From an uncultured Bacilli bacterium (GTDB taxonomy: Bacteria > Bacillota_I > Bacilli_A > RF39 > UBA660), in assembly GCA_947627915.1 (NCBI GenBank), contig CANQXT010000001.1, positions 2,231-66,230 of the forward strand: a stretch of 64,000 nucleotides of DNA, in the 5' to 3' direction. The translations under genes were made by a program, and so were the position numbers. Below, piece by piece: positions 1-46,577 of this stretch. Within the stretch, counting starts at the first letter, position 1, and each line of letters starts with the position of its first letter. Below the pieces are notes generated by a model, which did no database searches, was not told the origin of the DNA, and was given only the letters and a program-made list of their open reading frames with translations.

Positions 1-339
1 ATAAGCATCTTTACTTTCAATAACTACTTGTTGTAAAGCTTCCTTATTAGCACCTTTTATATCTCTTGCAAACAAAGTACACCATTTTGGATTTTTACTT
101 TCAATAACTATTTGCTCTAATGCTCCAATATTTGCTCCTTTAACACTTAATCCAAATTCATAACATAACTTTGGATTATTTGAATCTAATACTACTTGTT
201 CATAATCAGTAGCATCAATAATTGTTCCATCTCTTTTAGCTTCTTGTACAAACCAAACATATAAAAAAGCATTTTTGGTACTTAGTATTATTTTTCCTAT
301 TTCATTTATTTCTTCATCTGTTAAATCCATAAAATTCAT
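1..339 (-). CDS. Hypothetical repeat-containing protein, N-terminal 113 codons; C-terminus lies beyond the window start
   Basis: Minus-strand frame is open from a Met at 339 to position 1. A GGTGGTGG-like Shine-Dalgarno lies just upstream of the ATG. The translation MNFMDLTDEE...KGANIGALEQIVIESKNPKWC...KGANKEALQQVVIESKDAY shows an internal repeat of about 27 aa. Not in the ORF track because it is truncated. Confidence 0.4.
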   Translation of the reverse strand, partial: MNFMDLTDEEINEIGKIILSTKNAFLYVWFVQEAKRDGTIIDATDYEQVVLDSNNPKLCYEFGLSVKGANIGALEQIVIESKNPKWCTLFARDIKGANKEALQQVVIESKDAY

Positions 340-42928: not shown

Positions 42929-43552
42929 ATGAAAAAAAGTGAATTAACTAAACGTCAAAGTGAAATTTTAGATTTTATTAAAAAGTTTATTGCGGAACAT
43001 GGTTTTCCCCCATCAGTAAGAGAAATATGTGCTGGAGTTGGATTAAATAGTCCCGCTACTGTATTTGTCCATTTAAAAAATATTGAGAATTTAGGATATA
43101 TCAAAACAACTAGCAATAAATTTAGAACTATTGAAATTTTATGTGAAAATGAATATTTACCTACTAATGAGAATGTTGTCAAAGTTCCTCTATTAGGAAA
43201 AATTACGGCAGGTAATCCTATTACAGCAATTGAACAACCAAATGAATTTTTTGATATTCCAGCATCTCTAATTCCTGCTAAAGAAGAAGTATTTACTCTT
43301 CACGTCTCTGGTGAAAGTATGATTAATGCGGGAATTTATGATGGTGATTATGTTATTGTTAAAAAACAAAGTAATGCTAAAAATGGTGACATTGTTGTAG
43401 CAATGACTATGGAAAATGAAGCCACTATTAAAACATTTTATAAAGAACATGGACACATTCGTTTACAACCGGAAAATGATACAATGGATCCAATTATTTT
43501 AGATAATTGTGTTATTCTCGGTATAGCAATTGGCCTTTATCGAAAGTTATAA
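42929..43552 (+). CDS. lexA: LexA repressor (SOS regulator, S24 peptidase)
   Basis: 207 aa. N-terminal winged HTH (LTKRQSEILDFIKKFIAEHGFPPSVREICAGVGLNSPATVFVHLKNIENLGYI), a cleavage-site region and an S24 domain with Ser (VSGESMINAGI) and Lys (IVVAMTMENEATIK). Confidence 0.9.
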   Translation: MKKSELTKRQSEILDFIKKFIAEHGFPPSVREICAGVGLNSPATVFVHLKNIENLGYIKTTSNKFRTIEILCENEYLPTNENVVKVPLLGKITAGNPITAIEQPNEFFDIPASLIPAKEEVFTLHVSGESMINAGIYDGDYVIVKKQSNAKNGDIVVAMTMENEATIKTFYKEHGHIRLQPENDTMDPIILDNCVILGIAIGLYRKL

Positions 43553-45311: not shown

Positions 45312-45860
45312 TTAAAATTTAACTTTAACATTTTGTCTTTCTTCATTACTTGCCTCAAAGAAAGTTTCTTTTTTAAATCCGAATATTCCTGCTACAATAT
45401 TTGATGGGAACATTTCTATCTTATTATTAAGTTTTAATACGGAATCGTTATAAAAACTTCTTGCATAACTAATTTGTTCTTCTGTTTCTCTTAATTCACC
45501 TTGAAGTTGTAAAAAATTTTCGTTAGCTTTTAAATCTGGATAACTTTCAGATAAAGCAAATAATCTACTCATTGCTTTACTTAATTCTCCATCAGCTTCA
45601 AGTTGTCCTTCTAAGTTATTAGCATTTACATAATTATTACGAGCTTTAATTACATTTTCTAAAGTTTCACTTTCATGTTTCATATAACCTTTAACTGTTT
45701 CAATTAAATTAGGTATTAAATCAAATCTTCTTTTTAATTGAACATCAATTTGACTATATTGATCTCTAACCTTATTTCTTAATGAAACTAAACTATTATA
45801 AACTGAACCAATAAAGATTCCTAAAACTAATAAAACCACTATTAAAATAATCCACGGCAT
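45312..45860 (-). CDS. lemA: LemA-family protein
   Basis: 182 aa. N-terminal TM, then VSLRNKVRDQYSQIDVQLKRRFDLIPNLIETVKGY, typical of LemA. Confidence 0.85.
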   Translation of the reverse strand: MPWIILIVVLLVLGIFIGSVYNSLVSLRNKVRDQYSQIDVQLKRRFDLIPNLIETVKGYMKHESETLENVIKARNNYVNANNLEGQLEADGELSKAMSRLFALSESYPDLKANENFLQLQGELRETEEQISYARSFYNDSVLKLNNKIEMFPSNIVAGIFGFKKETFFEASNEERQNVKVKF

Positions 45861-45976
45861 ACTTCATTCCTCCTATAAATTAATCTTAACATAAATAAAT
45901 GTTATTAGCAATTAATAATATGCTTAATTACTATTTTGTTGACAGATTTAATATTTAAATGTTTTTATAAATAAAA

Positions 45977-45994
45977 CTAGAGTGTGCTCTCTAG
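45977..45994. terminator. Palindromic hairpin CTAGAG-tgtgct-CTCTAG followed by a T-run (bidirectional terminator-like)
   Basis: Seen directly: 6-bp arms (45977-45982 and 45989-45994), A-rich before and tttctttttttaa after. Confidence 0.4.
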
Positions 45995-46002
45995 TTTCTT
46001 TT

Positions 46003-46110
46003 TTTAAGTTCCTCTTATGGTGGGAATCACCGCTTTTTTAAGTTCCTCTTATTGGTTGGAATCACCACTTTTTTAAGTTCCTCTCAACAGTGGGAATCAC
46101 TAGCTTTTTT
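46003..46110. repeat. Three tandem direct repeats of 34-35 bp (TTTTTTAAGTTCCTCT-N9-10-GGAATCAC-N3-4)
   Basis: AAGTTCCTCT at 46006, 46040 and 46075. GGGAATCAC/TGGAATCAC at 46022, 46057 and 46092. Units are separated by T6. Units 1 and 3 contain a short GGTG...CACC/CACT dyad; the centres vary. Confidence 0.7.
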
Positions 46111-46114
46111 ATAT

Positions 46115-46175
46115 GCTATTAAATTTAATAGCAATATTATTATATGCAAATTTGCATAGCTTAATTAACTTAAGC
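46115..46175. promoter_or_regulatory. Cluster of three distinct palindromes in the region upstream of lemA
   Basis: Seen directly: GCTATTAAATTTAATAGC (46115-46132, perfect 18 bp), TATGCAAATTTGCATA (46143-46158, perfect 16 bp) and GCTTAA-ttaac-TTAAGC (46159-46175). Confidence 0.4.
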
Positions 46176-46227
46176 CACTTTAAATATATATTTTTTCTTA
46201 TACCATTGTCAAGACCTATTATTTATA

Positions 46228-46577
46228 TTATTCTATTTCATATTCATAGATATTTGCATTTTGAGGATTAAATGTTAGAAAATTTGTATTCTCATCATAC
46301 CCTATTAAATTAAAATGTAAAGCTTTCATAAAACTCCCGTGAAAAATTATTAAAATATTTTTATTAGGATATTCTCTTTTTATGTTATCTAAAATGTTTT
46401 TGCTCTTTTTAAAGGAGAACAAATACATATATCTATTTTACTTAAATCTATCTTTTTTCTCAATTCTTTAGTTTGTTTTATTCCTTCTTCATTTAAAGCA
46501 ATATCAGTCAATCCCTGTAATAATCTTTGGTCATTCCAATCAGTTTTTCCGTGTCTAACAATATATAGTTTATGCAT
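46228..46577 (-). pseudogene. Histidine phosphatase (phosphoglycerate-mutase family) pseudogene, frameshifted and internally truncated
   Basis: ORF 46389..46577 encodes the N-terminus with the RHG catalytic motif (YIVRHGKTDWNDQRLLQG...CSPLKRAKTF). ORF 46228..46428 in another frame encodes a C-terminal piece (IIFHGSFMKALHF). The combined span of about 116 codons is roughly half a normal ~200-aa enzyme. Confidence 0.55.

Follow-up and report, generated by a model that had tools for sequence, protein, structure and literature searches.

Upstream of lemA in a 64,000-nt stretch of contig CANQXT010000001.1 from an uncultured Bacilli bacterium (the window, to whose positions all feature coordinates refer), positions 45977-46175 hold a terminator-like hairpin, three tandem repeats and several palindromes, and the question raised by this locus is what such a crowded segment encodes or controls. 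The initial annotation favoured a multi-regulator operator array and listed a small structured RNA among the alternatives. Here, all of these elements are assigned to one predicted minus-strand transcription unit (46212-45967), which is very probably (a probability of about 0.88) the antitoxin half of a type III toxin-antitoxin locus of the ToxIN/AbiQ family, its toxin gene having been lost by deletion. This reading draws on the anatomy of the unit, its conservation, the covariation of its base pairs, the linkage of the same cassette to toxN in relatives and the lack of toxN in the window.

Reading of the sequence confirmed each of the elements in place. The CTAGAG-tgtgct-CTCTAG hairpin (45977-45994) has a stem extending to 9-10 bp at 45974-45997. 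The three tandem units (46000-46111) were recovered by Tandem Repeats Finder with a period of 35, 3.2 copies and a score of 155, at spacings of 34-35, and beyond them lie a perfect 18-bp palindrome (46115-46132), a perfect 16-bp palindrome (46143-46158) and GCTTAA-N5-TTAAGC (46159-46175). The unit boundaries AAGTTCCTCT...GGAATCAC stood as first described, while the variable segment between them is 7-8 nt long and not 9-10 nt. The 16-mer TTTTTTAAGTTCCTCT occurred in three exact copies, with 0.37 matches expected at ≤2 mismatches. Palindromes by themselves are not rare at 23% G+C (0.45 and 2.0 near-matches expected); those of the window owe their significance to their conservation in about 50 other genomes, where compensatory changes occur.

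Linkage of the cassette to toxN in related genomes

A scan for AAGTTCCTCT-N6-10-GGAATCAC in one genome per species (596 Gb) matched at least 120 loci, and all counts of array loci given below are among the matches listed in that scan. Scattered single matches in unrelated phyla were at about the chance level for 18 specified bases in 596 Gb, by a rough estimate of our own. Tandem arrays of 2-4 units with the terminator were present in at least 52 loci, the window counted in, mostly in gut metagenome-assembled genomes (MAGs) labelled as uncultured Bacilli, Tenericutes, Mycoplasma sp. CAG, Erysipelotrichaceae or Candidatus Ventrenecus, and the arrays in related MAGs were trailed by the same hairpin, ACTAGAGAGCnnACTCTAG-TTTT. 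Other copies of the repeat motif thus occur in tandem arrays of many related genomes, with no further units elsewhere in the window, and the repeats are not the unique, non-conserved sequence that they might have been, being conserved with covariation across many genomes.

The gene that follows the array was assessed in the 46 of 52 loci with at least about 900 nt of downstream sequence (judged loci, the window counted in). Thirty-two of the 46, among the matches listed, possessed an intact open reading frame (ORF) of ~170 aa on the same strand, 60-150 nt downstream. It matched Pfam PF13958 (E 1e-47 to 1e-48), PADLOC AbiQ (E 7e-40) and, among solved structures, ToxN of Bacillus thuringiensis (4ATO, the best match, E 3e-27), ToxN of Pectobacterium (2XD0, E 8e-20), 7D8O and AbiQ (4GLK, E 2e-13), and the linked proteins were 37-46% identical to plasmid ToxN/AbiQ proteins. 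The ~170-aa ORF of the related loci is thus identified by homology as a ToxN/AbiQ toxin. Four further judged loci among the matches listed carried a frameshifted toxin copy (L005, L065, L096, L131), and ten had no toxin in the locus: the window, L016, L038, L046, L079, L087, L098, L114, L125 and L130. These ten are called orphans here.

Type III loci consist of a promoter, tandem repeats and a terminator, then the toxin (PMC3401426; PMC5086642), and in the toxIN family the repeats are 31-62 nt long in 1.9-5.6 copies and the toxin measures about 168 aa (Blower et al. 2012, PMC3401426). The window contains three units at 46104-46000 that are 36, 35 and 34 nt long (period 35, 3.2 copies), a TTGACA-N18-TATATT promoter before the array, a predicted hairpin with a U-rich tail at 45997-45967, and units whose covariation agrees with the pseudoknots of ToxI and antiQ. 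In the position of the downstream toxin, lemA follows the cassette after about 105 nt. Since the adjacent toxin gene is absent, the locus is classed as the antitoxin part of such a locus and not as a complete toxin-antitoxin system. By inspection, arrays preceding annotated ToxN/AbiQ genes in Lactococcus, Fusobacterium and Bacillus mycoides appear to share the A-tract-GGUG-...-ACC-...-AAG design with the units described here. Readings of the repeats as FRT-like, iteron or CRISPR-like elements were dropped on finding the linkage to toxN.

The cassette was not found on phages, plasmids or viral contigs, IMG/VR included, and there is therefore no sign of phage origin. In Rfam, no family matched the whole window at the gathering threshold, and an E-value scan of 45850-46300 returned noise (HPnc0260, E 0.73; sR24, E 2.5).

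Several features of the toxin-linked loci were observed alongside. Many of them (L013, L028, L033, L051, L055, L061, L064, L077, L093, L101, L104 and others) show a -10 box of the TATAAT type in the stretch from the terminator to the ribosome-binding site of toxN, in L077 as part of a complete TTGACG-N17-TGTTATAAT, and L014, L026, L078, L080 and L083 have no room for such a promoter; from its sequence, toxN in this clade may own a promoter, beyond terminator read-through. L127 contains a second promoter and leader (TTGACT..., GCATAAGTGATTATG, GCAAATTGTTGCATA) about 60-370 nt after the terminator of its first array and before toxN, and may hold two tandem cassettes. The same AT-rich Bacilli-type cassette and toxin type occur in L013, L073, L080 and L129 (labelled Muribaculaceae/Bacteroidaceae), L056 and L102 (Ruminococcus) and L125 (Clostridia), which suggests mis-binned contigs or loose taxonomy behind the Bacteroidota and Clostridia labels rather than wide transfer.

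Promoter, leader, pseudoknot units and terminator on the minus strand

The cassette promoter (46212-46183, minus strand) lies just beyond 45977-46175 and faces the palindromes and repeats. It comprises a -35 box TTGACA (46212-46207), an 18-nt spacer and a -10 box TATATT (46188-46183), matching 11 of 12 consensus positions, and about 30 related loci have a T[TA]GAC[AT]-N17-TATATT promoter at an unchanged distance. Transcription is predicted to start near 46176, giving a leader of 65 nt with three hairpins; in related loci, one to three hairpins lie between the promoter and the first unit.

Leader hairpin 1 (46158-46176, minus strand) is the 5'-terminal GGCUUAA-GUUAA-UUAAGCU, corresponding to GCTTAA-N5-TTAAGC, and was predicted in the fold. 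Almost every related locus has this hairpin, with compensatory variants such as ACUUAA/UUAAGU, ACAUAA/UUAUGU and GCAUAA/UUAUGC, and in the covariation alignment of the leaders of related loci (A3) pair 3-20 was AU in 16 and GC in 5, and pair 7-18 AU in 13 and UA in 6. Being 5'-terminal, this hairpin could shield the RNA against 5' decay. Leader hairpin 3 (46115-46132, minus strand), GCUAUUAA-AUUU-UUAAUAGC, corresponds to the 18-bp palindrome; its stem varies between loci yet always pairs (GCUAC/GUAGC, GCC/GGC, ACCAUUA/UAAUGGU, GCAAC/GUUGC).

Between them, leader hairpin 2 (46143-46158, minus strand), UAUGCA-AAUU-UGCAUA, corresponds to the 16-bp palindrome, and across 23 loci its pairing reached 98%, compensatory variants being limited to a few such as UGUCA/GACA and UGCC/GGCA. 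Directly after it comes a conserved single-stranded motif, UAAUAAUAU (about 46134-46142, minus strand), and in both of them the sequence itself is conserved along with the pairing. GCATATAAT is similar to the -10 box that B. mycoides has in its toxI promoter immediately ahead of the first repeat. The motif GCATATAATAAT (46134-46147), whose sequence is conserved at the same position in about 20 related leaders and which was noted also in L134 at about 258-272, matches the -10 region of that promoter. The GCATATAATAAT/hairpin 2 region may act as a second promoter within the leader or represent an ancestral one, or have another sequence-specific role.

The array proper comprises three antitoxin units on the minus strand, with the pattern G(C/U)(G/U/A)GUGAUUCC(C/A)AC(C/U)...(A/G)AGAGGAACUU-AAAAAA. 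Unit 1 (46069-46104, 36 nt, GCUAGUGAUUCCCACUGUUGAGAGGAACUUAAAAAA) is preceded by an A6 tract (46105-46110) and represents the GCUAGUG...CACU variant, as does the first unit of most related arrays; all four of its variable pseudoknot pairs are formed. Unit 2 (46034-46068, 35 nt, GUGGUGAUUCCAACCAAUAAGAGGAACUUAAAAAA) forms three of the four, with an A·G mismatch at pair 18-31 that also occurs in arrays with an intact toxin such as L035. Unit 3 (46000-46033, 34 nt, GCGGUGAUUCCCACCAUAAGAGGAACUUAAAAAA) equals both the consensus of the family and its commonest unit, which recurs 18 times in other loci.

An H-type pseudoknot was tested on an alignment of 72 distinct units (A2), with stem 1 pairing columns 8-11 with 19-22 (GGUG/CACC) and stem 2 columns 14-18 with 31-36 (UUCC-C / G-a-GGAA). 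Of the cells, 93.4% were paired, compared to 19-55% when the partners were slid, and five of the nine pairs showed changes on both sides. The covarying pairs included 9-21 (GC 46, AU 23), 11-19 (UA 53, CG 16) and 18-31 (CG 50, GC 17, UA 1), and in none of 500 shuffles was the covariation score as high as that observed. Within the family, the four invariant UUCC:GGAA pairs carry no information; between families stem 2 covaries, as UCUC/GAGA in Lactococcus, GCC/GGC in Bacillus and CUC/GAG in Fusobacterium. Each unit is thus predicted to fold as an H-type pseudoknot with A-rich single-stranded tails. The ToxI RNAs known so far form pseudoknots of this type too, and their tails are likewise single-stranded (PMC5086642). 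The cleavage sites described are A^AAA for AbiQ acting on antiQ and A^AAAA for the B. thuringiensis ToxN (PMC7781912), and the A6 tracts between the units would fit these by analogy.

The features first read on the other strand can be translated into this structure: the GGTG...CACC dyad is stem 1 of the pseudoknot, AAGTTCC...GGAAT is stem 2, and the T6 runs become A6 tracts when read on the transcribed strand. The earlier suggestion of a small structured RNA with repeated modules was therefore essentially right, apart from the strand, which is the minus strand, and from the modules, which are pseudoknots split by A6 tracts and not hairpins with U-tails. A Shine-Dalgarno-like or CsrA-type GGA "sponge", or a likeness to the anti-16S 3' tail, was also weighed on sequence grounds and set aside, the invariant AGGAA being the 3' arm of stem 2.

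The same arm bears on the idea that the units are leader peptides, namely three overlapping minus-strand mini-ORFs reading GTG ATT CC... and encoding MIPTVERNLKKW, MIPTNKRNLKKR and MIPTIRGT, each before a stop codon. The GTGA start/stop overlaps and AGAGGA Shine-Dalgarno-like motifs that such peptides call for are present in the sequence, but AGGAA is accounted for as the invariant pseudoknot arm, differences of 1-5 nt in the linker, not confined to multiples of three, give units of 34-39 nt and so keep no reading frame, and the variation tracks base pairing and not codon position. This reading is therefore rejected, as the least probable of those considered.

The cassette ends in a predicted intrinsic terminator (45967-45997, minus strand), AAACUAGAG-AGCACA-CUCUAGUUU followed by UAUUUAU, with a 10-bp stem; on this strand the CTAGAG hairpin is followed by UUUUAUUUAU. 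Folding of the two strands gave a z-score of -3.3 for the plus strand, and -11.5 kcal/mol with a z-score of -5.2 for the minus-strand terminator hairpin. ACTAGAGAGCnnACTCTAGTTTT is kept between the array and toxN in about 40 loci among the matches listed. The terminator was called on the minus strand because CTCTAG is followed by TTTTATTTAT, because of the fold and because of the conserved position before toxN.

It is very unlikely that the plus strand is the functional one, whether as a small RNA of hairpin-U6 modules or as a stack of four terminators halting antisense transcription into the upstream genes. The plus-strand fold has its own z-score of -3.3, and the CTAGAG hairpin and unit 1 are terminator-like in that direction (3 sites, with 0.1 expected). 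However, no consensus promoter faces that way. The minus strand is indicated by the conservation of the promoter, by the direction in which toxN runs in 36 loci among the matches listed and by the conserved T-tail that follows the hairpin, and the T-runs are explained as complements of A-tracts, the kind of site that ToxN-type enzymes cut.

Extrapolating from the ToxIN/AbiQ family, a strong sigma-70-type promoter would produce a transcript of about 210 nt made up of the three-hairpin leader, three units of 34-36 nt and an intrinsic terminator that leaks. Where the locus is complete, ToxN, an endoribonuclease encoded downstream, would cut this precursor within the A6 tracts, and each released pseudoknot would bind and block ToxN until phage infection tips the balance and frees the toxin (abortive infection).

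Probable deletion of the toxin gene and the position of lemA

A tblastn search with 20 family toxins detected neither toxN nor a remnant of it below E 0.1 in the 64-kb window, and none was found in the nine other orphan loci. How the window lost the gene is indicated by L005, its closest lemA relative, which is syntenic with it. Window 46255-45963 aligns to L005 1404-1657 at 82-95% identity and window 45932-43585 to L005 2928-5267 at 85% identity. Between them, blastn and alignment placed a deletion junction (45933-45962, minus strand), where 30 nt stand in place of L005 1658-2927 (about 1.27 kb), a segment that in L005 contains a toxN matching in two frames (frameshift) and a Peptidase_S51 gene. 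The cassette homology of the two begins at the -35 box and stops just after the terminator tail. As judged from these alignments, the simplest history would be insertion of toxIN, inactivation of the toxin as in L005, and then a deletion of ~1.27 kb in the lineage of the window. Three contigs of the same species (L001, L002 and L004) differ from the window only by one single-nucleotide polymorphism and are uninformative on conservation.

The cassette of the window is thus most likely a recently orphaned remnant, with toxN gone, the RNA probably still made, without a partner encoded nearby, and some terminator read-through adding to lemA transcription as the sole likely local effect. This explanation is ranked ahead of that of a selected, antidote-only module, which would supply a ToxI-like RNA in trans for a ToxN elsewhere in the genome, or against ToxN arriving on a plasmid or phage (anti-addiction or immunity), and which is considered possible but rather unlikely. 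Retention by selection would agree with the intact state of promoter, leader, all three units and terminator, and orphan arrays recur in 10 of the 46 judged loci among the matches listed, in unrelated contexts and mostly with their promoters kept. Their variable pseudoknot pairs are formed as often (98.1%) as those of toxin-linked units (98.7%), and ToxI precursors neutralise ToxN, with phages escaping ToxIN via ToxI-like repeats (PMC5086642). Moreover, the MAG Lapin-033__bin60 holds a complete toxIN (L048) and an orphan (L098) with near-identical units, together with a third array at a contig end (L029), so that supply in trans is conceivable. Loss of the toxin first is, however, the expected order of decay of any toxin-antitoxin pair, and orphan arrays would therefore arise even without selection. 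Some orphans are also damaged, L038 lacking a promoter and both L038 and L087 having truncated terminators. The identity between the cassettes of the window and L005 (82-95%) is on a par with that of the neighbouring coding sequence (85%), but this conservation argument has no neutral baseline, both flanks being rearranged. Finally, the 64-kb window shows no toxN, and the viral contigs, phages and plasmids searched yielded no copy of the cassette. The broader proposal that toxin-less toxI cassettes are recurrent, selectively kept antidote-only genes of gut Bacilli, directed against ToxN of paralogous loci or of incoming mobile elements, and in which the three-hairpin leader stabilises or regulates the RNA, is held to be slightly less likely again.

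Several points weigh against the reading of the locus as the antitoxin half of a type III system whose toxin was deleted. A simple terminator scan listed the hairpin on the plus strand only. The assignment to an RNA family rests on our own comparisons, Rfam having no matching family, and transcription, processing, antitoxic activity and present-day function, or its loss, are inferred. "Orphan" is a locus-level label: 64 kb of the genome was viewed, and toxN may lie elsewhere on the chromosome or on a plasmid. The cassette is moreover fully intact, with 11 of 12 promoter positions and all three units well formed, and since this fits recent loss as well as retention by selection, a functionless remnant is not established.

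Other orphan loci showed rearrangements of their own. The cassettes of L125 and L055 and the first ~25 nt after their terminators are nearly identical, beyond which L055 continues into toxN and L125 into unrelated small ORFs and a membrane protein, which looks like a clean swap of the toxin gene. The terminators of L087 (array at about 200-300, reverse strand) and L038 break off in mid-stem, suggesting an insertion or recombination breakpoint within the cassette, and the DNA downstream of L087 carries reverse-strand ORFs, one with a CxxC...CHRR motif, HNH-nuclease-like.

As first annotated, the region is flanked by lemA (45860-45312) and a DUF2207 gene (45277-43586) on one side and by a broken phosphatase gene on the other, all on the minus strand. 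The latter consists of an N-terminal His_Phos_1 piece (46577-46389, profile positions 1-57) and a C-terminal piece in another frame (46428-46228, profile positions 125-181); about 67 middle profile positions are missing, and the gene is in the same state in the same-species L001 and L002. The window has 23% G+C and 51 ORFs of 120 aa or more, 49 of which lie on the minus strand; lexA (42929-43552) is one of the other two. The source organism is known solely through metagenome assemblies (ENA ERZ272490xx-ERZ272496xx).

The lemA promoter (45911-45883, minus strand) consists of a -35 box TTGCTA (45911-45906), a 17-nt spacer and TGn with a -10 box TAAGAT (45888-45883), about 20 nt upstream of the lemA ribosome-binding site. 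Among relatives whose LemA is 80-87% identical (L005, L006, L009 and L010), TTGCTA-N17-TGnTA(A/T)(G/T)AT is kept in register, and in three of them (L006, L009, L010) lemA is preceded by PBP1 or Peptidase_S51 genes, with the repeats and palindromes absent; the S51 gene adjoins lemA in other relatives too. As the lemA promoter is kept in relatives lacking the cassette, the repeat region lies outside the conserved lemA control region. A conserved GCATATTATTAAT element just upstream of the extended -10 promoter (window 45883-45931; L005 2928-3000, L006 2930-3000, L010 2935-3000) could, from its sequence, be an UP element or operator for lemA.

The direct repeats and dyads are thus very improbable as protein-binding sites through which several regulators control lemA/DUF2207, the reading preferred initially. 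They do lie upstream of lemA on the same strand, and the sequence conservation of hairpin 2 (TATGCA-N4-TGCATA) would suit a protein-binding site as well. Nevertheless, they have a promoter and a terminator of their own, the latter standing between the region and lemA, and a proximal lemA promoter is kept where they are missing. In about 36 other genomes among the matches listed, the same elements precede toxN and not lemA, and leader stems 1 and 3 as well as the unit stems change in sequence while keeping their pairing, as expected of RNA structure and not of a DNA recognition site.

Comparison with known type III systems

With the false lead to lemA removed, what appeared as a dense control region becomes one annotatable RNA antitoxin gene of a ToxIN/AbiQ abortive-infection system. 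The kind itself is already known, and the modestly new aspects are the recurrent toxin-less cassettes and the conserved structured leader. No description of orphan or solitary type III antitoxins, nor of a three-hairpin leader, was found in the type III literature searched. Surveys of type III systems (PMC3401426; PMC5086642) start from the toxin protein and are therefore blind to arrays without a toxin, and orphans made up about one in five arrays (10/46) among the matches listed, in addition to those with a broken toxin (4/46). The conserved succession of promoter, structured leader, pseudoknot units and terminator offers a search handle for a subfamily outside Rfam.

Among the known systems, ToxIN of B. 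thuringiensis pAW63 (ToxI_Bt, 34 nt x 2.9; 4ATO) and its plasmid relatives in B. mycoides and B. cytotoxicus show the same order of promoter, three 34-nt repeats, terminator and toxN, and 4ATO was the best structure match of the cassette-linked toxins of relatives (E 3e-27). The Bacillus units share the succession of A-tract, GGUG, 5' arm of stem 2, (U/C)ACC, linker and 3' arm of stem 2, as in the B. mycoides unit AAAATTGGTGTAGCCTTACCGTAGTAGGCACAAA. They differ in stem 2, which is GCC/GGC compared to UUCC/GGAA in the cassette of gut Bacilli, and toxin identity is only about 37%. In addition, the Bacillus promoter abuts the first repeat, whereas a leader of 45-75 nt with 1-3 hairpins intervenes in the gut Bacilli, and the Bacillus systems are plasmid-borne, whereas the present family is chromosomal in uncultured gut Bacilli and has no toxin gene in the window.

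By inspection of the sequences, the closest known unit is AAAAGCGGTGAATCTCCACCATCAAGTGAGAATCAA, from a lactococcal plasmid ToxN/AbiQ locus, compared to AAAAAAGCGGTGATTCCCACCATAAGAGGAACTT here. AbiQ/antiQ of Lactococcus lactis (35 nt x 2.8; 4GLK) likewise has about three repeats, cut in the A-tract at A^AAA (PMC7781912), and PADLOC names the cassette-linked toxins AbiQ. It is set apart by weaker toxin similarity (4GLK, E 2e-13, about 40% identity), by a UCUC/GAGA stem 2, by another host group and by the absence of the toxin in the window.

The class prototype, ToxIN of Pectobacterium atrosepticum pECA1039 (ToxI_Pa, 36 nt x 5.5; 2XDB/2XDD), has the same operon logic and H-type pseudoknot units, a homologous toxin (2XD0, E 8e-20) and the GGUGAUU start in its ToxI (AGGTGATTTGCTACCTTTAAGTGCAGCTAGAAATTC, confirmed in NC_011767), but more repeats, AA^AU and not an A-run as its cleavage site, and a plasmid in a Gram-negative host. 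Published work found the systems of Pectobacterium and Bacillus to be free of cross-talk (PMC5086642), and cross-neutralisation with the family of gut Bacilli is therefore unlikely.

A precedent for a functional toxin-less array is provided by the "pseudo-ToxI" of phage TE escape mutants, in which ToxI-like arrays act in trans to neutralise ToxN (PMC5086642). There the phage carries the arrays, which were selected for escape from ToxIN, whereas the array of the window is chromosomal and would derive from a complete locus by deletion. Should some of the orphans have a function, they would amount to a chromosomal version of what phages do with pseudo-ToxI and would bear on the prediction of phage sensitivity in uncultured gut Bacilli.

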